From: Escherichia coli
Lineage (GTDB): Bacteria > Pseudomonadota > Gammaproteobacteria > Enterobacterales > Enterobacteriaceae
Direction: 5' to 3' (one strand)
NCBI RefSeq assembly: GCF_044324875.1
Contig: NZ_CP172185.1
Length of the DNA: 64,000 nt
Shown: piece after piece, positions 23,755 through 64,000 of the stretch
Layout: each line of letters starts with the position of its first letter
Numbering within the stretch: the first letter of the stretch is position 1
Made by a program: the position numbers and the translations under genes
Notes under the pieces: model-generated
Databases searched by the model: none
Told to the model about the DNA's origin: nothing
Seen by the model: the letters and a program-made list of their open reading frames with translations, nothing else

Positions 23755-26013
23755 ATGAGCGATATGGCAGAGCGCCTTGCGCTACATGAATTTACGGAAA
23801 ACGCCTACTTAAACTACTCCATGTACGTGATCATGGACCGCGCGTTGCCGTTTATTGGTGATGGTCTGAAACCTGTTCAGCGCCGCATTGTGTATGCGAT
23901 GTCTGAGCTGGGCCTGAATGCCAGCGCCAAATTTAAAAAATCGGCCCGTACCGTCGGTGACGTACTGGGTAAATACCATCCGCACGGCGATAGCGCTTGT
24001 TATGAAGCGATGGTCCTGATGGCGCAGCCGTTCTCTTACCGTTATCCGCTGGTTGATGGTCAGGGGAACTGGGGCGCGCCGGACGATCCGAAATCGTTCG
24101 CAGCAATGCGTTACACCGAATCCCGGTTGTCGAAATATTCCGAGCTGCTATTGAGCGAGCTGGGGCAGGGGACGGCTGACTGGGTGCCAAACTTCGACGG
24201 CACTTTGCAGGAGCCGAAAATGCTACCTGCCCGTCTGCCAAACATTTTGCTTAACGGCACCACCGGTATTGCCGTCGGCATGGCGACCGATATTCCACCG
24301 CATAACCTGCGTGAAGTGGCTCAGGCGGCAATCGCATTAATCGACCAGCCGAAAACCACGCTCGACCAGCTGCTGGATATCGTGCAGGGGCCGGATTATC
24401 CGACTGAAGCGGAAATTATCACTTCGCGCGCCGAGATCCGTAAAATCTACGAGAACGGACGTGGTTCAGTGCGTATGCGCGCGGTTTGGAAGAAAGAAGA
24501 TGGCGCGGTGGTTATCAGCGCATTGCCGCATCAGGTTTCAGGTGCGCGCGTACTGGAGCAAATTGCTGCGCAAATGCGCAACAAAAAGCTGCCGATGGTT
24601 GACGATCTGCGCGATGAATCTGACCACGAGAACCCGACCCGTCTGGTGATTGTGCCGCGTTCCAACCGCGTGGATATGGATCAGGTGATGAACCACCTCT
24701 TCGCAACCACCGATCTGGAAAAGAGCTATCGTATTAACCTCAATATGATCGGTCTGGATGGTCGTCCGGCGGTGAAAAACCTGCTGGAAATCCTCTCCGA
24801 ATGGCTGGTGTTCCGCCGCGATACCGTGCGCCGCCGACTGAACTATCGTCTGGAGAAAGTCCTCAAGCGCCTGCATATCCTCGAAGGTTTGCTGGTGGCG
24901 TTTCTCAATATCGACGAAGTGATTGAGATCATTCGTAATGAAGATGAACCGAAACCGGCGCTGATGTCGCGGTTTGGCCTTACGGAAACCCAGGCGGAAG
25001 CGATCCTCGAACTGAAACTGCGTCATCTTGCCAAACTGGAAGAGATGAAGATTCGCGGTGAGCAGAGTGAGCTGGAAAAAGAGCGCGACCAGTTGCAGGG
25101 CATTTTGGCTTCCGAGCGTAAAATGAATAACCTGCTGAAGAAAGAACTGCAGGCAGACGCGCAAGCCTACGGTGACGAACGTCGTTCGCCGTTGCAGGAA
25201 CGCGAAGAAGCGAAAGCGATGAGCGAGCACGACATGCTGCCGTCTGAACCTGTCACCATTGTGCTGTCGCAGATGGGCTGGGTACGCAGCGCTAAAGGCC
25301 ATGATATCGACGCGCCGGGCCTGAATTATAAAGCGGGCGATAGCTTCAAAGCGGCGGTGAAAGGTAAGAGCAACCAACCGGTAGTGTTTGTTGATTCCAC
25401 CGGTCGTAGCTATGCCATCGACCCGATTACGCTGCCGTCGGCGCGTGGTCAGGGCGAGCCGCTCACCGGCAAATTAACGTTGCCGCCTGGAGCGACCGTT
25501 GACCATATGCTGATGGAAAGCGACGATCAGAAACTGCTGATGGCTTCCGATGCGGGTTACGGTTTCGTCTGCACCTTTAACGATCTGGTAGCGCGTAACC
25601 GTGCAGGTAAGGCTTTGATCACCTTACCGGAAAATGCCCATGTTATGCCGCCGGTGGTGATTGAAGATGCTTCCGATATGCTGCTGGCAATCACTCAGGT
25701 AGGCCGTATGTTGATGTTCCCGGTAAGCGATCTGCCGCAGCTGTCGAAGGGCAAAGGCAACAAGATTATCAACATTCCATCGGCAGAAGCCGCGCGTGGA
25801 GAAGATGGTCTGGCGCAACTGTACGTTCTGCCGCCGCAAAGCACGCTGACCATTCATGTTGGGAAACGCAAAATTAAACTGCGTCCGGAAGAGCTACAGA
25901 AAGTCACTGGCGAACGTGGACGCCGCGGTACGTTGATGCGCGGTTTGCAGCGTATCGATCGTGTTGAGATCGACTCTCCTCGCCGTGCCAGCAGCGGTGA
26001 TAGCGAAGAGTAA
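23755..26013 (+). CDS. parC: DNA topoisomerase IV subunit A
   Basis: 752-aa ORF; GyrA/ParC N-terminal catalytic region (active-site AAMRYTE region) and C-terminal beta-pinwheel. Confidence 0.95.
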
Positions 26014-54616: not shown

Positions 54617-55309
54617 CTAGTGATAACCACGCGCGGTCATAAAATCCGTAATCGCTTTTTCTGCATCAACCAGCACCTTTTCCAGTGGCTGATTGGCATC
54701 GATATCAACCAGTTGTGCACCACCAAAGGTTAACTGTGGCGTTATTGCAATCTTCCTCGCCAGCGATTCCCGTTTATGGTCGGGTTTACGCGCGCAGGCA
54801 ACTTCAAGGTCAACATTGAGTTTGATGACCAGATCAGGTTTATGGCTCGCCATCCAGTGAAACGCTTTACGTTCCTGGCTTGCCAGCCATGAGACAAACC
54901 GGCCGCCTTCAACGTTAGGCGGGAACACTGTACCATCGTAAGCGCCAGGAATTTGGTCCTGAGGATAACGGTCGGTTAGAACAATTAACCCGCGACGACG
55001 ACAGGCAAGCATATGACGAAAGCGCAGTAAGCGACGGGCGACAAACGCTGTAATTACCAGCGCCGGAACAGGGCCAGGCAATTTTTTTGCTGTTTTCACC
55101 TGATTTCGTTCAATTGTTTTATGTAAGGATTTTCCCATCAACGGTAATTTTGTCACTGCACGACCGACATTTCCGGCCTGTTTTCCTAAATGAACTCTTT
55201 CGGCTGCACCATATTTTTCGACAACGGTAATGAGATGTTCACACACCGTTGACTTGCCTGAACCATCGCTACCAATAACGGCAATTAATGGAGGTGTTAT
55301 TGACTGCAT
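54617..55309 (-). CDS. yghT: P-loop NTPase of unknown function YghT
   Basis: 230-aa ORF with Walker A (GSDGSGKST) and hydrophobic-Asp Walker-B-like LTDRYPQ; paralog of the next two genes. Confidence 0.8.
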
Positions 55310-55482: not shown

Positions 55483-56196
55483 GTGAATCAACGTAATATG
55501 TCAATAATTAATTCCACGCCAGTGCGTGTTATTGCCATTGTAGGATGTGATGGTTCAGGTAAATCGACCCTCACGGCAAGCCTGGTAAATGAACTGGCAG
55601 CAAGAATGCCAACAGAACACATTTATCTCGGGCAATCGTCCGGGCGAATTGGCGAATGGATTTCACAGCTCCCTGTTATTGGCGCACCTTTTGGGCGTTA
55701 TCTGCGAAGTAAAGCGGCACATGTGCACGAAAAGCCCTCAACACCGCCTGGCAATATTACTGCGCTGGTTATCTATCTGCTTTCCTGCTGGCGGGCGTAT
55801 AAGTTTCGCAAAATGTTGTGTAAAAGCCAGCAAGGCTATCTGCTCATCACCGACCGCTACCCGCAGGTTGAAGTGCCGGGTTTTCGCTTTGATGGCCCGC
55901 AATTGGCAAAAACCACGGGCGGTAACGGTTGGATAAAAATGTTAAGGCAGCGCGAGCTGAAGCTGTACCAATGGATGGCGTCTTATTTGCCCGTATTGTT
56001 GATTCGTCTTGGCATTGATGAACAAACGGCGTTTGCGCGTAAACCTGACCACCAACTGGCGGCGTTACAGGAAAAAATCGCCGTTACGCCGCAACTGACA
56101 TTCAATGGCGCAAAGATCCTTGAACTGGATGGTCGGCAACCAGCCGATGAAATTATGCAAGCGTCACTACGCGCAATTCACGCCGCGCTTTCCTGA
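55483..56196 (+). CDS. yghS: P-loop NTPase of unknown function YghS
   Basis: 237-aa ORF with Walker A (GCDGSGKST) and ITDRYPQ; paralog of yghT and yghR. Confidence 0.8.
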   Translation: MNQRNMSIINSTPVRVIAIVGCDGSGKSTLTASLVNELAARMPTEHIYLGQSSGRIGEWISQLPVIGAPFGRYLRSKAAHVHEKPSTPPGNITALVIYLLSCWRAYKFRKMLCKSQQGYLLITDRYPQVEVPGFRFDGPQLAKTTGGNGWIKMLRQRELKLYQWMASYLPVLLIRLGIDEQTAFARKPDHQLAALQEKIAVTPQLTFNGAKILELDGRQPADEIMQASLRAIHAALS

Positions 56197-56227: not shown

Positions 56228-56986
56228 ATGGATGCACTACAAACACAAACTGTTAATAGTACAACCGCGCCGCAGCCCAACTACATTCCGGGGCTGATTG
56301 CGGTGGTCGGGTGTGATGGCACCGGTAAATCCACGCTGACCACCGACCTGGTGAAATCGCTGCAACAACACTGGCAAACCGAGCGCCGCTATCTGGGGCT
56401 GCTCTCCGGCGAAGACGGCGACAAAATCAAACGATTGCCGTTGGTTGGCGTCTGGCTGGAACGGCGACTGGCGGCCAAATCCTCGAAAACCCAAAGCATG
56501 AAAACCAAATCTCCAGCGCTATGGGCGGCGGTGATTATGTACTGCTTCTCGCTGCGAAGAATGGCGAATCTACGCAAGGTTCAGCGACTGGCGCAAAGTG
56601 GCGTTCTGGTGGTCAGCGATCGCTTCCCGCAGGCTGAAATTTCGGGCTTTTATTATGACGGACCGGGGATCGGCGTCGAACGTGCGACCGGGAAAATCAG
56701 CATGTTTCTGGCGCAGCGCGAACGGCGTTTATACCAAAAAATGGCGCAATACCGTCCTGAATTAATCATTCGTTTGGGGATTGATATTGATACTGCCATC
56801 TCCCGCAAGCCTGACCATGACTATGCCGAGCTGCAGGACAAAATCGGCGTCATGTCGACGATTGGCTATAACGGCACAAAAATTCTTGAGATTGATTCCA
56901 GAGCGCCCTACAGCGAAGTGCTGGAACAGGCACAGAAGGCGGTTTCTCTGGTTGCCATCGTTTCTGACCGCCGAAGTTTAACTTAA
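56228..56986 (+). CDS. yghR: P-loop NTPase of unknown function YghR
   Basis: 252-aa ORF with Walker A (GCDGTGKST) and VSDRFPQ; third paralog. Confidence 0.8.
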   Translation: MDALQTQTVNSTTAPQPNYIPGLIAVVGCDGTGKSTLTTDLVKSLQQHWQTERRYLGLLSGEDGDKIKRLPLVGVWLERRLAAKSSKTQSMKTKSPALWAAVIMYCFSLRRMANLRKVQRLAQSGVLVVSDRFPQAEISGFYYDGPGIGVERATGKISMFLAQRERRLYQKMAQYRPELIIRLGIDIDTAISRKPDHDYAELQDKIGVMSTIGYNGTKILEIDSRAPYSEVLEQAQKAVSLVAIVSDRRSLT

Positions 56987-57031: not shown

Positions 57032-58381
57032 TTGGCGGGTTTTAACATCAAACATTGGTTTGCAGATGGCGCGTTTCGCACCATTATTCGCAATAGCGCC
57101 TGGTTAGGCTCCAGTAATGTCGTGAGCGCCTTGCTGGGTCTGTTGGCGCTCTCGTGTGCCGGTAAAGGGATGACGCCCGCCATGTTTGGCGTACTGGTGA
57201 TTGTGCAATCGTACGCCAAGTCGATCAGCGATTTTATTAAGTTTCAGACATGGCAGTTGGTGGTGCAGTACGGAACACCAGCATTAACCAACAATAATCC
57301 ACAGCAATTCCGCAATGTCGTCTCATTTTCCTTCTCGCTGGATATCGTCAGCGGCGCGGTGGCGATTGTCGGCGGCATTGCCTTACTCCCTTTTCTTTCC
57401 CATTCATTAGGTCTGGATGACCAAAGCTTTTGGCTGGCAGCGCTGTATTGCACGCTCATTCCTTCAATGGCTTCCTCCACGCCGACCGGCATTCTGCGTG
57501 CGGTAGATCGCTTCGACTTAATTGCTGTACAGCAGGCGACGAAACCTTTTCTGCGCGCAGCGGGGAGCGTCGTTGCCTGGTATTTTGACTTTGGTTTTGC
57601 GGGTTTTGTTATTGCCTGGTACGCCTCGAATCTTGTTGGCGGCACCATGTACTGGTGGTTTGCCGCACGTGAATTACGCCGCAGAAATATCCATAACGCG
57701 TTCAAATTGAATCTGTTTGAGTCTGCCCGACACATCAAAGGCGCGTGGAGTTTTGTCTGGTCAACCAACATTGCCCATTCCATCTGGTCGGCGCGTAATT
57801 CGTGCAGCACAGTGTTGGTGGGGATCGTGTTAGGACCCGCTGCCGCCGGGTTATTTAAAATCGCCATGACATTCTTCGACGCCGCCGGAACGCCAGCGGG
57901 TTTACTGGGCAAAAGTTTTTACCCAGAGGTGATGCGTTTAGATCCGCGTACCACCAGACCGTGGTTGTTAGGCGTGAAGTCAGGTTTACTGGCGGGCGGA
58001 ATCGGTATTCTGGTGGCGCTCGCGGTGTTGATCGTCGGCAAGCCGCTCATTTCGCTGGTGTTTGGCGTTAAGTATCTCGAAGCGTATGACCTGATTCAGG
58101 TGATGCTGGGCGCAATTGTGATCTCGATGCTGGGCTTCCCTCAGGAGTCATTGCTATTGATGGCGGGAAAACAGCGCGCTTTTCTCGTGGCGCAAACCAT
58201 CGCCTCAATCGGCTACATCGTATTGCTGTTCATGTTCTGTCATCTGTTTGGCGTGCTGGGGGCTGCATTTGCTTACTTCGGTGGGCAATGTCTGGATGTG
58301 GTGTTCTCGCTAATTCCGACCTTAAAGGCATTTTTTCAGCGCCATTCCTTGCTTTATAACTCAGCCGGAGAGAAATCCTGA
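57032..58381 (+). CDS. yghQ: Polytopic inner membrane protein, Wzx/MOP-flippase-like (YghQ)
   Basis: 449-aa ORF, hydrophobic throughout with many predicted transmembrane segments; the ORF-track start is a TTG, so the true start may be an internal ATG (for example about 57170). Confidence 0.7.
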   Translation: MAGFNIKHWFADGAFRTIIRNSAWLGSSNVVSALLGLLALSCAGKGMTPAMFGVLVIVQSYAKSISDFIKFQTWQLVVQYGTPALTNNNPQQFRNVVSFSFSLDIVSGAVAIVGGIALLPFLSHSLGLDDQSFWLAALYCTLIPSMASSTPTGILRAVDRFDLIAVQQATKPFLRAAGSVVAWYFDFGFAGFVIAWYASNLVGGTMYWWFAARELRRRNIHNAFKLNLFESARHIKGAWSFVWSTNIAHSIWSARNSCSTVLVGIVLGPAAAGLFKIAMTFFDAAGTPAGLLGKSFYPEVMRLDPRTTRPWLLGVKSGLLAGGIGILVALAVLIVGKPLISLVFGVKYLEAYDLIQVMLGAIVISMLGFPQESLLLMAGKQRAFLVAQTIASIGYIVLLFMFCHLFGVLGAAFAYFGGQCLDVVFSLIPTLKAFFQRHSLLYNSAGEKS

Positions 58382-59217
58382 TGATGAGAAAATATTTCCC
58401 GCTTGAGGCGAGCGAGCGTCTATTTGTTGCGATTGAAGAAGATGATGTTGTTGATGCACAGGTCAGTTTGCCGCCGACTATCGCACTAAGTTGTACCACC
58501 GAAATCATCCATGATAATTACGCGTTATGCCTGCAATTCTGGCTCAATGGCGTCAATCGCCAGGAGTTACTGCGTTTAATATGCAAACAGGCCAAAGGCG
58601 ATGAGCTGACTGCTGATGAGCGCAAACAATTTAAATACATGCGAGCGCGCTACAAGCACCTGCGTTTTGCGCAACGGCTGTATTTAAAAAAGCATCAGGC
58701 CGGATTTTTATTCGGCAAAACGACCGTTTTTTTGGGGCGTTTTCAGGACGGCTTTCGTAACGGTAAGAAAAATATTGTGTCGTATTACGGCAACCTGTTA
58801 CGGGTTTATTTAAGCTCTCCGGTCTGGTCGTTGGTGAACTATTCATTACGCCATAGCCAGTTAGAAAGCGTAAGCGGTTTTATTGCCTATCGGCAAAAGC
58901 AAATGCATACCCTGAAAGAGATAATTGCCAAACCGCGACTAACTGGCAGGGAATTTCATGATGTGCGAAAAATCATCAGCCAGCAGGTTTCTTATTACGA
59001 CACCTTAAGATCGCTTGATCCTGAAAATAAAGAGGCGTTACTGATTTCCCGTTTTCTCGCCGCCATTAATGGTCTGATGGGGGATAAGCACGACGACATG
59101 GTGGCGGATGATATGGAAAACCGCCAGTCGTATGATGCACCGGTGGCGCTGGATAGCGATATTCGCCAGCGTTTAGAACTGCTGATTTCGCGTTTCCCAC
59201 TCTATCCGGAGCAATAA
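58381..59217 (+). CDS. Hypothetical soluble protein (no recognised domain)
   Basis: 278-aa ORF whose ATG overlaps the yghQ stop (ATGA) and whose stop overlaps the next start (TAATG); no transmembrane segment or signal peptide seen. Confidence 0.6.
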   Translation: MMRKYFPLEASERLFVAIEEDDVVDAQVSLPPTIALSCTTEIIHDNYALCLQFWLNGVNRQELLRLICKQAKGDELTADERKQFKYMRARYKHLRFAQRLYLKKHQAGFLFGKTTVFLGRFQDGFRNGKKNIVSYYGNLLRVYLSSPVWSLVNYSLRHSQLESVSGFIAYRQKQMHTLKEIIAKPRLTGREFHDVRKIISQQVSYYDTLRSLDPENKEALLISRFLAAINGLMGDKHDDMVADDMENRQSYDAPVALDSDIRQRLELLISRFPLYPEQ

Positions 59218-59777
59218 TGCCATCTCGTTGGATTTTCGCTCTGATCATCGCACTCTTAGCGCCAGGCGCGGTGGCACACAATTTCGTCACTGGCAAAACG
59301 GTTACCCCTGTTTATATCCAGGAAGGCGGTGAGTTGCTTCTGAAAAGCGACGACGAAATTCACTACCAAAAGTGGAACAGCACACAGCTGGCGGGAAAAG
59401 TTCGCATTATTCAGTATATCGCCGGGCGTAAGTCGGCGAAGAAAAAGAACTCACTGTTAATTAAAGCGGTTGAAGCGGCAAACTTTCCGCAGGATCGTTT
59501 TCAGCCCACCACCATTGTGAACACCGATGATGCCATTTTTGGTACTGGCTATTTTGTCGTTGGCAAAATCGAAAAAAATAAACGCCGCTATCCGTGGGCG
59601 CAATTCGTTATTGACGGCAATGGACAGGGACGCGTTGCCTGGCGGTTGCCGGAGCAGAGTTCAACCATTCTGGTGCTGAATAAAGACGGGCAAATTCAGT
59701 GGGCAAAGGACGGCAGCCTGACGCCGGAAGAGGTAGATCATGTCATTGCGCTGGCGCAGAAACTGATCAATGAATAA
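59217..59777 (+). CDS. Secreted/periplasmic protein with signal peptide (possibly YtfJ-like)
   Basis: 186-aa ORF with N-terminal signal peptide (MPSRWIFALIIALLAPGAVA); family assignment tentative. Confidence 0.55.
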   Translation: MPSRWIFALIIALLAPGAVAHNFVTGKTVTPVYIQEGGELLLKSDDEIHYQKWNSTQLAGKVRIIQYIAGRKSAKKKNSLLIKAVEAANFPQDRFQPTTIVNTDDAIFGTGYFVVGKIEKNKRRYPWAQFVIDGNGQGRVAWRLPEQSSTILVLNKDGQIQWAKDGSLTPEEVDHVIALAQKLINE

Positions 59778-59807: not shown

Positions 59808-60878
59808 ATGAAGCTGGTTGAACACTACATCATGCGTGGTACGCGCCGTCTGGTGTTGATTATCGTCGGTTTTCTGATCTTTATTTTCGCCAGCTACTCC
59901 GCACAGCGTTATCTGACCGAAGCGGCAAATGGGACATTAGCTCTTGATGTTGTGCTGGATATCGTTTTCTACAAAGTGCTGATTGCACTGGAGATGTTGT
60001 TACCTGTTGGACTGTATGTGTCAGTTGGCGTGACGCTAGGGCAGATGTATACCGATTCGGAAATTACCGCTATCTCTGCGGCGGGGGGCAGTCCGGGACG
60101 CTTGTACAAAGCCGTTCTTTATCTGGCGATACCGCTAAGTATTTTTGTCACCCTTCTGTCGATGTATGGTCGTCCGTGGGCTTATGCGCAGATTTATCAA
60201 CTGGAGCAACAGTCACAGTCGGAGCTGGATGTTCGCCAGTTGCGGGCAAAGAAATTTAACACTAACGATAACGGACGAATGATCCTTTCCCAGACGGTTG
60301 ATCAGGATAATAATCGCCTGACTGACGCGCTGATTTATACTTCTACTGCCAATCGAACCCGCATTTTCCGCGCCCGTTCGGTTGATGTGGTTGACCCATC
60401 TCCCGAGAAACCGACCGTTATGTTGCACAACGGGACAGCCTATCTTCTCGATCATCAGGGGCGTGACGACAACGAACAGATCTACCGTCATCTGCAATTA
60501 CATCTGAATCCGCTGGATCAAAGCCCTAACGTCAAACGCAAAGCGAAATCGGTCACGGAGCTGGCGCGCTCCGTCTTTCCAGCCGATCATGCCGAACTGC
60601 AATGGCGACAAAGCCGTGGCCTGACAGCATTGTTGATGGCGCTGCTGGCCATTTCATTAAGTCGGGTAAAACCGCGGCAAGGGCGATTTTCAACATTATT
60701 GCCACTGACGTTGCTGTTTATTGCCATTTTTTATGGCGGCGACGTCTGCCGTACGCTGGTGGCTAACGGCGCGATTCCCCTCATTCCTGGTTTGTGGTTA
60801 GTACCCGGACTCATGCTAATGGGCCTGCTGATGCTGGTCGCACGCGACTTCTCTTTGCTGCAGAAATTTTCCCGATGA
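59808..60878 (+). CDS. YjgP/YjgQ-family permease, LptF paralog
   Basis: 356-aa ORF with the N-terminal helix pair, LG..Y.DSEITA motif, a large periplasmic insert and the RQGRF motif typical of LptF/LptG; location shows it is not the canonical lptF. Confidence 0.8.
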   Translation: MKLVEHYIMRGTRRLVLIIVGFLIFIFASYSAQRYLTEAANGTLALDVVLDIVFYKVLIALEMLLPVGLYVSVGVTLGQMYTDSEITAISAAGGSPGRLYKAVLYLAIPLSIFVTLLSMYGRPWAYAQIYQLEQQSQSELDVRQLRAKKFNTNDNGRMILSQTVDQDNNRLTDALIYTSTANRTRIFRARSVDVVDPSPEKPTVMLHNGTAYLLDHQGRDDNEQIYRHLQLHLNPLDQSPNVKRKAKSVTELARSVFPADHAELQWRQSRGLTALLMALLAISLSRVKPRQGRFSTLLPLTLLFIAIFYGGDVCRTLVANGAIPLIPGLWLVPGLMLMGLLMLVARDFSLLQKFSR

Positions 60879-61954
60879 ATGTTTTCAGTCGCTATTTAAT
60901 CCGTCATCTCTTTCTCGGTTTTGCCGCCGCCGCAGGGCTATTGCTGCCGCTTTTTACCACCTTCAACCTGATTAACGAACTGGATGATGTCAGCCCGGGT
61001 GGTTATCGCTGGACTCAGGCGGTGCTGGTGGTGCTGATGACCTTACCGCGCACACTGGTCGAACTTTCGCCGTTTATCGCATTATTGGGAGGGATTGTTG
61101 GCCTGGGGCAGTTATCGAAAAACAGTGAGCTTACCGCCATTCGCAGCACGGGGTTTTCTATCTTCCGTATTGCACTAGTGGCGCTGGTTGCCGGGATATT
61201 TTGGACTGTTTCGTTAGGCGCGATAGATGAGTGGGTGGCGTCGCCATTGCAGCAACAGGCGCTGCAAATCAAATCGACTGCCACCGCGTTGGGGGAGGAC
61301 GATGACATTACCGGCAATATGCTTTGGGCCAGGCGCGGTAATGAATTTGTGACGGTGAAATCGCTGAACGAGCAGGGCCAGCCTGTGGGCGTGGAGATAT
61401 TTCATTATCGCGACGATCTCTCGCTCGAATCCTACATTTTTGCACGCAGTGCCTCCATTGAAGACGACAAAACGTGGATCCTGCATGGTGTGAATCATAA
61501 AAAATGGTTGAATGGCAAAGAAACGCTGGAAACATCAGATAATCTTGCCTGGCAATCGGCCTTCACCAGTATGAATCTTGAAGAGTTATCGATGCCGGGA
61601 AATACTTTTTCTGTCCGTCAACTTAATCATTACATCCATTATTTGCAGGAAACTGGGCAACCCAGCAGCGAATACCGCCTTGCACTGTGGGAAAAACTGG
61701 GACAACCCATCCTGACCCTGGCGATGATTTTGCTGGCTGTGCCGTTTACCTTTAGTGCCCCGCGTTCGCCTGGGATGGGTAGCCGTCTCGCTGTAGGCGT
61801 CATCGTGGGCTTACTTACCTGGATCAGCTATCAAATCATGGTCAATCTGGGATTGCTATTTGCGTTGAACGCACCTGTTACCGCGCTCGGTTTACCGGTA
61901 GCGTTTGTGCTGGTGGCGTTGAGCCTGGTGTATTGGTATGACAGACAACATTAA
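60875..61954 (+). CDS. YjgP/YjgQ-family permease, LptG paralog
   Basis: ORF 60794..61954 trimmed to MNVFSRYLIRHLFLGF (359 aa), whose ATG overlaps the upstream stop (ATGA); LptG-like motifs (SEL.A..S.G, PRSPGMGSR). Confidence 0.8.
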   Translation: MNVFSRYLIRHLFLGFAAAAGLLLPLFTTFNLINELDDVSPGGYRWTQAVLVVLMTLPRTLVELSPFIALLGGIVGLGQLSKNSELTAIRSTGFSIFRIALVALVAGIFWTVSLGAIDEWVASPLQQQALQIKSTATALGEDDDITGNMLWARRGNEFVTVKSLNEQGQPVGVEIFHYRDDLSLESYIFARSASIEDDKTWILHGVNHKKWLNGKETLETSDNLAWQSAFTSMNLEELSMPGNTFSVRQLNHYIHYLQETGQPSSEYRLALWEKLGQPILTLAMILLAVPFTFSAPRSPGMGSRLAVGVIVGLLTWISYQIMVNLGLLFALNAPVTALGLPVAFVLVALSLVYWYDRQH

Positions 61955-61988
61955 ACCCGCCGTGGCGCAACACCACAGCGGGCTCACA

Positions 61989-63161
61989 TTACTGCTTCAG
62001 AGTAGCGAACGCTTGAATGATGGCATCAATTTGCTCACGACTGTGGGCAGCGTTTACGCTACAGCGCAGCAGCGTGATGCCTGCAGGCGCGGCAGGTGGC
62101 AGGATAAGATTCACATAAACGCCCAGCGAAATAAGCTCGCGCCAGATGCGTAAACCTTCCTCTTTCGAACCGATTATTACTGGCACTACCGGGCTAATAT
62201 GTGAACTTAACTCATAACCCAGTTTTTGCAGACCGTCATACAGATGGTTGGCATTATCCATCAGCTTTTGCCGCAACTCTGGTTGTGTAGCAATGGTTCT
62301 TAACGACGAGCGCACGGTCGCAATGCAGGACGGAGAAGGAGAGGCGGTAAAAATATACGGGCGGCTGCCGTAGCGCAGCACTTCCATCGCTTCCGAACCG
62401 ACAGCAAAACCGCCAATCGAGGCCAGACTTTTACTGAAAGTACCAACGATAATATCCACATCATCTTCAACGCCAACGGCTTCAGCCAGTCCGCGCCCCG
62501 TTGCGCCTAACACGCCAAACGAATGCGCTTCATCGACAATCAAATAACCACCGAGACGACGTTTGATATCAACAATTTCCGCCAGCGGCGCAACGTCACC
62601 GAGCATACTGTAGATGCCTTCAACGATGATAATCGCCTCTTTTGCCCGTTCACCGAGGCGAACCATGCGCCGTTCCAGATCTTTAGCATCGTTATGGCGG
62701 AAACGAATAATTTCCGCGCCACCGAGAGAACAGGCGTCATAAATACTGGCGTGGCTGTCGGCATCCAGTAACACCACGGCGTTATGGTCGGCAAGTGCGC
62801 TGATGACGCCTAAATTAGCGGTATAACCGGTTGAAAAAACGATAGCGGTAGGGCGATTAAAAAACTCGGCGATCTCTTTCTCTAACGCCAGATGCGGCGC
62901 ATAACTGCCGTTTGCCATACGAGAACCGGTGGTGCCGGTGCCTTGGGCCGCTAACGCTGCCTGACCTTCGGCGATGGCATCATGATTGAAGGTTAATCCG
63001 AGATAATTATTGGTCCCGGCCAGAATCACTTTTTTATTGCCGATCCGGCCTTCGGTGGCGGAATACACTTCATCAATACAGGTACCAAACGGCGTTAACC
63101 CGTTGTCACTAAATTGCAGTCGCTCGCCAGCAAGACGCGCATATTTATCGTATAGCCCCAT
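61989..63161 (-). CDS. Serine palmitoyltransferase-like PLP-dependent alpha-oxoamine synthase
   Basis: 390-aa ORF with the PLP-lysine motif GTFSKS (Spt-type; BioF has TFGKG, KBL has GTLGKA) and further blocks recalled from Sphingomonas Spt (AIVFSTGY.ANLG, LDADSHASIYD, VDEAHS, RPYIFTAS, PPA.PAG, LLRCS). Confidence 0.8.
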   Translation of the reverse strand: MGLYDKYARLAGERLQFSDNGLTPFGTCIDEVYSATEGRIGNKKVILAGTNNYLGLTFNHDAIAEGQAALAAQGTGTTGSRMANGSYAPHLALEKEIAEFFNRPTAIVFSTGYTANLGVISALADHNAVVLLDADSHASIYDACSLGGAEIIRFRHNDAKDLERRMVRLGERAKEAIIIVEGIYSMLGDVAPLAEIVDIKRRLGGYLIVDEAHSFGVLGATGRGLAEAVGVEDDVDIIVGTFSKSLASIGGFAVGSEAMEVLRYGSRPYIFTASPSPSCIATVRSSLRTIATQPELRQKLMDNANHLYDGLQKLGYELSSHISPVVPVIIGSKEEGLRIWRELISLGVYVNLILPPAAPAGITLLRCSVNAAHSREQIDAIIQAFATLKQ

Positions 63162-63409
63162 TATTTATTCTCCAGCCATGGAAGTAGTGTTTCCATTAAT
63201 TGCGCAGGGGTTTTGACATCCAGCAGAATATTAATAGGAATGGAAATATCGAATCTGTCTTCCAGCATCATTAAGAGATCCATCACTTTGATCGACTCCA
63301 GGCCAAGATCGTTGACGAGATCGCTGTCGGGCTTAATTTCCACACCGTTTTCGACCAAATCCTGTAAACAGGAAAGGATGTAATCCATTACTATTTCACG
63401 ATTTACCAT
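63161..63409 (-). CDS. Acyl carrier protein (dedicated ACP)
   Basis: 82-aa acidic ORF with the phosphopantetheine-attachment context DLGLESIKVMDL; stop overlaps the Spt-like start (TAATG). True start may be the internal Met at about 63388. Confidence 0.7.
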   Translation of the reverse strand: MVNREIVMDYILSCLQDLVENGVEIKPDSDLVNDLGLESIKVMDLLMMLEDRFDISIPINILLDVKTPAQLMETLLPWLENK

Positions 63410-63440
63410 AGAAACGTTAACACACCTTTAAACAAGACAA

Positions 63441-64000
63441 TCAAAATAGCCCGTTGCGTAATGCGTGTTCCAGGCTAATCCCGGGAAACCAATTAATATC
63501 TTCAGAAATACGGTTATTACTTGCTGACCAGTCGGCGTGGGTTAATTCACGGATTTTCGAGCGGGTCAGCATAGGTTCTTTACCTGCCAGGCGACTCAAC
63601 GTGGTACTGATATCCGCAAGGCAGGTGAGTACCGACAGAGGAATACCAACCATTCGAACGGAACCACAACGGGCGTCGGCGGCAAGCTGTCTTACGCGTT
63701 GCCAGTCATAGCCGCCGGCGACGCCATCGCATAATTCATAGGTTTGCGTCTGTACAGTTTCGGCGCTTAACCACTGCCCCACGGCTTGCGCGAAATCGGT
63801 GACGTGCAGGAAAGAGAGCTGTGTATCTGGCGCACCAAGTCGTGGCAGTAGGCCGCGCAGCATCCAGTCAAACAGCGGTTTTAACTCTTTATCGCCGGGA
63901 CCATACACGGCTGTCGGGCGAAAAATGCCCAGCGTAATTTCGTCAGCCATTGCGGTCAGTCGTTGTTCGGCGACGTGTTTGGAATTTGCGTACCAGGAGA
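63441..64000 (-). CDS. NAD(P)-dependent epimerase/dehydratase-family reductase, 3' portion (gene runs off the window)
   Basis: Frame is open to the window edge; only the C-terminal part is present, resembling extended-SDR epimerase/reductase proteins. N-terminal Rossmann region lies beyond 64000. Confidence 0.55.
   Translation of the reverse strand, partial: SWYANSKHVAEQRLTAMADEITLGIFRPTAVYGPGDKELKPLFDWMLRGLLPRLGAPDTQLSFLHVTDFAQAVGQWLSAETVQTQTYELCDGVAGGYDWQRVRQLAADARCGSVRMVGIPLSVLTCLADISTTLSRLAGKEPMLTRSKIRELTHADWSASNNRISEDINWFPGISLEHALRNGLF

Follow-up and report, generated by a model that had tools for sequence, protein, structure and literature searches.

A serine palmitoyltransferase operon at the end of a 64,000-nucleotide stretch of Escherichia coli: gene assignment, distribution and loss from K-12

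A stretch of 64,000 nucleotides of Escherichia coli (NCBI RefSeq assembly GCF_044324875.1, contig NZ_CP172185.1; hereafter the window) ends in three minus-strand open reading frames (ORFs; 61989-64000), which encode a serine palmitoyltransferase (Spt), an acyl carrier protein (ACP) termed AcpR and the C-terminal part of a reductase. We conclude with high confidence that these genes are the 3' half of the known aasR-epi(cerR)-acpR-spt operon, which together with the divergent gene yghO encodes the proteobacterial route to dihydroceramide. A sequence-only reading of the window had singled out these ORFs as a sphingolipid locus that was experimentally uncharacterized in Escherichia. The finding is correct but already known, and the claim of novelty has to be withdrawn: the same genes from BL21(DE3) were cloned, expressed and assayed by Padilla-Gómez et al. 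2022 (Front Microbiol 13:961041; PMC9386255), and the RefSeq/NCBI pipeline already labels the gene correctly as 'spt: serine palmitoyltransferase'. What the present analysis adds to PMC9386255 is the distribution of the locus across E. coli, the selection acting on it and its composition.

Gene assignment and the family of the Spt protein

The ORF listing and a direct reading of the strand place the three genes at the same positions as the initial reading had done (Table 1). That they are genuine genes is clear from the 600 bits of the Spt protein on its equivalog model and from the ratios of nonsynonymous to synonymous substitution rates (dN/dS) between E. coli strains, which are 0.03 (spt) and 0 (acp). 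They had also been described as translationally coupled. This holds for acp and spt, where the stop codon of the former and the start codon of the latter overlap by 1 nt (TAATG), but the description is only partly right for the set of three, because 31 nt separate the reductase gene from acp.

The 390-residue protein scores 600.1 bits on the NCBIfam Spt equivalog NF047599 (cut-off 500; E = 1e-180) and stays below the cut-offs of the sister families, namely BioF (TIGR00858; 334 bits against a cut-off of 426), KBL (NF005394; 298 against 460) and ALAS (TIGR01821; 220 against 339). In a sequence search of the entire PDB the top ten distinct sequences are all bacterial Spts (E = 8e-112 to 1.5e-77), led by the Sphingomonas paucimobilis enzyme 2JG2 (E = 8e-112, residues 3-385 aligned). 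The first match outside this family is a cysteate-C-fatty acyltransferase (7e-60); KBL (5e-59), BioF (~1e-50 to 2e-52) and ALAS follow far behind the Spts, and the CAI-1 synthase CqsA is also listed. These results bear out the initial assignment of the protein to Spt as opposed to BioF, KBL or ALAS.

Older annotations offer a competing assignment, in which the protein would be a second BioF (8-amino-7-oxononanoate synthase) or a KBL. Identical or nearly identical database entries are indeed named '8-amino-7-oxononanoate synthase' or '7-keto-8-aminopelargonate synthetase-like enzyme', and BioF, KBL and ALAS have the fold-type I superfamily of pyridoxal phosphate (PLP) enzymes and the region of the lysine motif in common with the window Spt. 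However, this identity is refuted by the model scores given above, which lie under every curated cut-off of these families, and by the far lower scores against their solved structures (~175-204 bits for BioF and KBL chains versus 377 for Spt). The neighbors of the gene, moreover, encode an ACP, a ligase and a reductase, and are not bio or tdh genes. We give the BioF/KBL assignment a negligible probability.

The PLP lysine of the window Spt is Lys244, within the motif IVGTFSKSLASIGG, which contains GTFSKS. The residues H137, D210, H213 and K244 align with His159, Asp231, His234 and Lys265 of 2JG2, and an arginine equivalent to Arg390 of the latter is also conserved. The best solved relatives, with conserved catalytic residues, are the Spts of S. 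paucimobilis and S. wittichii (2JG2 and 2X8U). A difference is seen in a loop at residues ~350-360 (window 62080-62110), where the RPPATP of Sphingomonas, with Arg378, is replaced by LPPAAP, with a leucine at the position of this arginine. This leucine is shared by the enzymes of E. coli, Hafnia and Citrobacter and by 115 of the 116 fetched sequences carrying the motif, while the remaining one has a valine one residue earlier and again a leucine at the Arg378 position. We take Arg378 of the Sphingomonas enzyme to contact the serine carboxylate. The BL21(DE3) enzyme is active on serine despite having leucine at this position (PMC9386255).

This replacement, present in all enterobacterial orthologs seen, favors an alternative in which the enzyme natively acts on another amino acid or acyl donor and its product is not a sphingolipid precursor but, for instance, an alpha-amino ketone of the sulfonolipid, 1-deoxy or signaling type, with the in vitro reaction on serine a side activity. 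It is also consistent with this alternative that alpha-oxoamine synthases accept alternative substrates, that the cysteate-C-fatty acyltransferase is the next PDB relative after the Spts with CqsA also among the matches, and that the relaxed substrate specificity of these Spts is treated in a section of its own in PMC9386255. However, the protein lies above the Spt equivalog cut-off, and homologs of all four other Caulobacter ceramide genes adjoin spt. We accordingly regard a different native product as very improbable, and retain the assignment as a serine palmitoyltransferase.

Biochemical evidence from BL21(DE3)

The functional reading of the locus is supported because near-identical BL21(DE3) proteins were assayed in PMC9386255. 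In that strain the genes are named ECD_02851 (AasR_Ec), ECD_02852 (Epi), ECD_02853 (AcpR_Ec), ECD_02854 (SPT_Ec) and yghO/ECD_02850 (Aca), with ECD_02852 and yghO/ECD_02850 as the candidates for the reductase and the N-acyltransferase, respectively (PMC9386255). The window Spt is identical to ECD_02854 at 388 of 390 positions, the window ACP to ECD_02853 at 82 of 82, and the visible part of the reductase to ECD_02852 at 176 of 185. The gene order and flanks of ECD_02850-ECD_02854 are the same, and only strain-level substitutions differ.

The assays (all PMC9386255) cover the ligase, the carrier protein and Spt. AcpR_Ec incorporates beta-alanine, a marker of the 4'-phosphopantetheine group, and thus carries this group. 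AasR_Ec acts on its own AcpR and not on that of Caulobacter, and in vivo there is a dependence on the cognate AasR_Ec. SPT_Ec and AcpR_Ec, along with the cognate ligase, make 3-oxo-sphinganine, and extracts containing SPT_Ec convert L-[14C]serine and palmitoyl-AcpR into such a product, as judged by thin-layer chromatography of the radiolabeled products, with palmitoyl-AcpR preferred over palmitoyl-CoA. Overproduction of 3-oxo-sphinganine in BL21 gave rise to spots with the mobility of sphinganine and ceramide, formed 'possibly by intrinsic enzymes', and the authors tentatively credit these to the chromosomal ECD_02852 and ECD_02850. In the same paper the locus is treated as characteristic of E. 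coli B (BL21 and the enterotoxigenic E. coli strain B7A).

The carrier protein, the reductase and the genes beyond the window

A dedicated ACP beside spt had been proposed from the start, and the protein encoded directly upstream of spt fits this description: it is 82 residues long, is the same protein as AcpR_Ec and has its phosphopantetheine site in DLGLES (Ser39). On the NCBIfam ACP models it gives many weak matches below threshold (best E = 6e-9), and its orthologs in Hafnia and Citrobacter carry the PP-binding domain PF00550. The prediction of an NAD-dependent epimerase/reductase family gene likewise stands. The catalytic YxxxK motif (YANSK) lies inside the part of the reductase seen in the window, and the Rossmann motif TGATGFIG lies beyond position 64000, as seen in the full-length ortholog of 304 residues. 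The protein is an extended short-chain dehydrogenase/reductase (SDR) related to HpnA and OleD, and reaches no curated NCBIfam cut-off.

The sequence past the end of the window was taken from closely related genomes, those of strains ECA64, C4 and BL21(DE3). These have a common gene order, in which glcC and yghO (380 residues) are followed by the divergent ligase-reductase-acp-spt operon and then, convergent with spt, by genes for LptG-like, LptF-like, YtfJ-family and hypothetical proteins and by yghQ, yghR and yghS; yghT and pitB come last. The ligase is a fatty acyl-AMP ligase of the AasR type (562-574 residues), encoded directly upstream of the reductase gene and outside the window; the two genes overlap by ATGA, and the protein scores 871 bits on NF006624 (cut-off 600). 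The initial expectation that genes for an acyl-ACP synthetase and an N-acyltransferase would lie beyond 64000 is borne out in the related genomes by this ligase and by yghO, the candidate N-acyltransferase gene. The divergent intergenic region between the two, about 1.1-1.4 kb past the window end, spans 371 bp and has a GC content of 33%, compared with 50-55% in the genes (25077-25447 of locus L002, which aligns with the window over 14,000 nt without gaps).

Some sources label YghO orthologs as 'GNAT family N-acetyltransferase'. The putative homology of YghO to Caulobacter CC_1154 is taken from Table S2 of PMC9386255, where the two are reported to be 44% identical (E = 1e-107, 98% coverage). 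In Hafnia, a gene for a 4'-phosphopantetheinyl transferase (218 residues, PF17837 and PF01648; contig L006, 4570-5226) is convergent with yghO and lies ~240 bp from its 3' end, at a yghO-side position that is occupied by other genes in E. coli and C. amalonaticus. Its product might be a dedicated activator of AcpR.

Loss from K-12

K-12 had been thought to lack the locus, and its yghO pseudogene had been suspected to be a remnant of the cluster; both suppositions proved right. K-12 is without the locus because an IS5 element replaces 8,387 bp; in the alignment this interval begins at window position 58101 and extends ~2.5 kb beyond 64000. Homology of the window to K-12 stops at 58100, within yghQ, and in MG1655 the element (insH9) sits between yghO and yghQ. 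Besides spt, acp and the genes for the reductase and the ligase, the segment removed contains both lpt paralogs, the YtfJ-like and hypothetical genes, the 3' end of yghQ and the first 40 bp of yghO. In the K-12 remnant of YghO the N-terminus comes from IS5, and residues 10-380 show 99% identity. In effect the K-12 reference strain is a deletion mutant for the sphingolipid locus, while the standard expression host BL21(DE3) carries it, which matters for users of BL21 as a 'sphingolipid-free' background.

Distribution, selection and composition

By megablast, the 3-kb end of the window is present in 4,149 of 5,426 complete E. coli genomes. The full locus, taken as the 11.3-kb stretch from yghQ to glcC with at least 80% covered, is present in 4,049 of the 5,426, including CFT073; the other genomes show the K-12-type IS5 deletion, further truncations or an IS3 insertion. 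In E. coli, the reference organism for bacterial membrane biology, ~75% of sequenced strains carry an intact sphingolipid pathway that is under purifying selection. Orthologs of Spt with 84-96% identity are found in E. albertii, Pseudocitrobacter, Citrobacter amalonaticus and Hafnia, and orthologs of YghO that are ~80% identical in Serratia, Pluralibacter, Pantoea, Erwinia, Kosakonia and Mangrovibacter (among the best 120 matches, all at ~80% or more). The order of the block from yghO to yghT, with the adjoining pitB, is kept in Hafnia and C. amalonaticus at ~65-85% amino-acid identity, and the two differ in the flank beyond yghO.

Between two E. coli strains spt shows 32 nucleotide differences and 2 amino-acid changes, which corresponds to the dN/dS of 0.03 given above. 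The values for all 12 genes of the block within E. coli range from 0 to 0.19, and every computable value between genera falls at 0.03-0.20, with dS saturated or nearly so. The block is under purifying selection, and this argues against a decaying relic. Its GC content is 50-55% throughout, as in the host genome, with the exception of the 371-bp region between the ligase gene and yghO. This agreement with the E. coli average gives no indication of a recent import of the block by horizontal transfer, a possibility that was considered.

Several observations weigh against a working route to dihydroceramide in E. coli. The products of the E. coli genes are known by co-migration in thin-layer chromatography (TLC), with mass spectrometry for the Caulobacter genes only, and BL21 with empty vectors or single genes gave no new lipid on TLC despite its chromosomal locus (both PMC9386255). 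We found no report of a sphingolipid in wild-type E. coli in the literature searched. YghO had no Pfam match, either alone or with 15 orthologs, no NCBIfam match and no PDB match in a profile search of PDB sequences, and its AlphaFold2 model, built with 15 close orthologs, was too poor for a fold search (predicted local distance difference test (pLDDT) score of 55.5). Neither the operon nor the region upstream of it gave a sigma-70 promoter match above shuffled controls in a scan. Silencing of the AT-rich 371-bp region by a nucleoid protein would fit with the absence of a product in laboratory cultures.

Some of these observations, namely the empty-vector result, the want of native reports and the AT-rich upstream region with no promoter match above chance, also favor the alternative that the locus is a cryptic relic. 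Its enzymes would work when overexpressed, but the chromosomal copy would be silent, yield no physiologically relevant lipid and be heading for loss, as has happened in K-12. That about a quarter of the complete genomes are without the full locus, through deletion, truncation or insertion, and that the lptF paralog of strain ECA64 is truncated by a prophage point in the same direction. However, every gene of the block is under strong purifying selection, about three quarters of the genomes counted above have the block intact, its order has been kept in Hafnia and Citrobacter across considerable sequence divergence, and its GC content gives no sign of recent import. We consider a cryptic relic unlikely, and prefer the view that the operon and yghO encode a pathway to dihydroceramide.

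Comparison with Caulobacter and the proposed pathway

The initial reading had likened the combination of Spt, ACP and reductase to the core of the Caulobacter ceramide cluster. The likeness goes further: Caulobacter crescentus CC_1165-CC_1162 and CC_1154 (aasR, cerR/epi, acpR, spt and bcerS/aca) form the same five-gene set as in E. coli, and the order aasR-epi-acpR-spt is the same in both, with the Caulobacter genes lying inside the CC_1168-CC_1152 sphingolipid cluster. This cross-phylum gene order is already published. In Table S2 of PMC9386255 the identities to the Caulobacter proteins are 53% for Spt and 34% for the reductase with CC_1164 (E = 7e-38). In S. wittichii an ACP gene precedes spt, as in E. 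coli, whereas in the Sphingomonadaceae aasR lies far from acpR-spt, unlike in the E. coli operon.

Both the Caulobacter cluster and the E. coli block further encode a second LptF/LptG pair and a putative flippase. In Caulobacter, LptC2, LptF2, LptG2 and the putative flippase of the cluster are the proposed carriers of sphingolipids to the outer membrane. Caulobacter differs in having an LptC2; neither an LptC nor an LptB paralog is annotated in the E. coli block. The E. coli block also contains no annotated homologs of the Caulobacter head-group genes. The ceramide kinase CpgB of Caulobacter is similar to diacylglycerol kinases and has a GGDG motif; YghR, YghS and YghT are unrelated to it, and the E. 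coli block has these three instead, along with the CHAD-like and YtfJ-family proteins. The native sphingolipid product is known for Caulobacter and not for E. coli.

These comparisons and the published assays suggest the following pathway. AasR would adenylate a free fatty acid and load it onto the phosphopantetheine arm of AcpR, a step demonstrated experimentally with the BL21(DE3) proteins. Spt, with PLP at Lys244, would then condense L-serine with acyl-AcpR to give 3-oxo-sphinganine and CO2, as has been observed with a 99.5%-identical protein. YghO, as a homolog of the Caulobacter bCerS/Aca, is predicted to add the N-acyl chain, and the SDR-type reductase to reduce the 3-keto group, which would yield dihydroceramide; for these two steps we rely on homology, gene clustering and the ceramide-like TLC spots in BL21. 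Which of N-acylation and 3-keto reduction comes first is a point of dispute in the literature, between Olea-Ozuna 2021 and Stankeviciute 2022. YghQ might flip the lipid product and LptF2/LptG2 might export it, as an analogy with the Caulobacter cluster suggests.

More tentatively, most natural E. coli, together with Hafnia, C. amalonaticus, Serratia and Pantoea, might make a conditional and so far undetected sphingolipid with a head group that differs from the ceramide phosphoglycerate of Caulobacter; YghQ, the CHAD-like and YtfJ-like proteins and LptF2/LptG2, and perhaps YghR, YghS and YghT, would act in the modification of this lipid and its export to the outer membrane. We hold this to be possible but rather doubtful. 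If it is true, textbooks would have missed such a lipid because K-12 lost 8.4 kb to IS5. YghQ, the CHAD-like protein, the lptF/lptG paralogs and the P-loop proteins could be relevant to the identity of the native lipid and to how it is regulated and exported. The LptF/LptG paralogs in particular could inform the route of sphingolipids to the outer membrane, a question posed for Caulobacter in PMC11324152.

Neighboring genes

The features of the locus and of the adjoining block are collected in Table 1. The window coordinates of yghT, yghS and yghR were mapped from locus L002 by way of the gapless alignment mentioned above.

Table 1. Genes and other features at the end of the window (window coordinates)
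Feature	Coordinates	Strand	Description	Basis
Reductase gene (epi/cerR homolog)	63441..64000	-	SDR/epimerase-family reductase, 3' part of the gene	C-terminal 185 of 304 residues in window
acpR	63161..63409	-	Dedicated acyl carrier protein, 82 residues	DLGLES motif, BL21(DE3) identity
spt	61989..63161	-	Serine palmitoyltransferase, PLP-dependent alpha-oxoamine synthase (SPT_Ec), 390 residues	NF047599, PDB, BL21(DE3) identity
Terminator-like hairpin	61952..61986	-	Directly 3' of the spt stop, between convergent spt and lptG2	
lptG2	60875..61954	+	LptG-family permease paralog, 359 residues, convergent with spt	TIGR04408, 305 bits (cut-off 240)
lptF2	59808..60878	+	LptF-family permease paralog, 356 residues	TIGR04407, 318 bits (cut-off 230)
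YtfJ-family gene	59217..59777	+	YtfJ-family protein paralog, 186 residues	TIGR01626, 213 bits (cut-off 151)
CHAD-like gene	58381..59217	+	CHAD-like all-alpha protein, rare unnamed family	278-residue ORF; 274 residues in NCBI annotation
yghQ	57032..58381	+	MOP/Polysacc_synt-family flippase, 449 residues, full length (IS5-truncated in K-12)	
yghR	56228..56986	+	P-loop paralog	Co-conserved with block
yghS	55483..56196	+	P-loop paralog	Co-conserved with block
yghT	54617..55309	-	P-loop paralog	Co-conserved with block

The hairpin downstream of spt was found in a scan (L002 20986-20952, equivalent to window 61986-61952); it has a stem of 16 pairs, 9 of them G-C, and is a match to the consensus only. 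The gene that meets spt from the other side, lptG2, adjoins spt in Hafnia and Citrobacter too. As LptF2 and LptG2 are 30% and 28% identical, respectively, to the canonical LptF and LptG of K-12, which are encoded elsewhere on the chromosome, and as K-12 is without the copies described here, the two are paralogs, and we rejected the notion that they are the lipopolysaccharide-transport permeases of the cell. The RefSeq names lptF and lptG for the pair at 59808-61954 are probably an over-call. In strain ECA64 (locus L001, 1-12858), which is the closest to the last 3 kb of the window (99.9% identity), the lptF paralog is truncated by phage tail/baseplate genes and a recombinase gene, the window copy being intact. 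The YtfJ-family paralog holds the same position in Hafnia and Citrobacter.

The family of the CHAD-like protein is a rare one, accounting for 204 clusters among 1.84 billion representatives. The protein has invariant Arg, Asp and His residues, and its structure is confidently modeled as all-helical (pLDDT 96.8). YghQ gives a weak match to an NCBIfam MOP flippase model, and its orthologs carry PF01943 and PF13440. YghR, YghS and YghT are 34-43% identical to each other and have a common Walker A motif, GxDGxGKST. The RefSeq name 'dTMP kinase' is given to two of the three on the strength of a weak similarity, and PDB sequence searches with YghR and YghT returned P-loop matches at chance level only.

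Two distant metagenomic contigs, L009 and L010, encode CHAD-like homologs alongside YghQ-like and/or YghR/S/T-like genes. On L009 a YghQ-like flippase is present beside the CHAD-like and P-loop homologs. On L010, with a flank of close to 10 kb, spt, yghO and lptF/lptG-like genes were not found; this contig also has a gene that matches the Polysacc_synt family weakly, and further encodes a nucleotidyltransferase, a PEMT methyltransferase and an acyltransferase of the PlsC type. As the group occurs on these contigs, with L010 being without the sphingolipid and lptF/lptG-like genes, the CHAD-like protein, YghQ and YghR/S/T may constitute a separate, possibly lipid-related module that in Enterobacterales happens to lie next to the sphingolipid genes.

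A search with Rfam detected no RNA family in the region of the sphingolipid genes, and a single match across the whole window, the small RNA ES173 (RF02753; 33143-33206, minus strand, 99 bits), which is unrelated to the locus.

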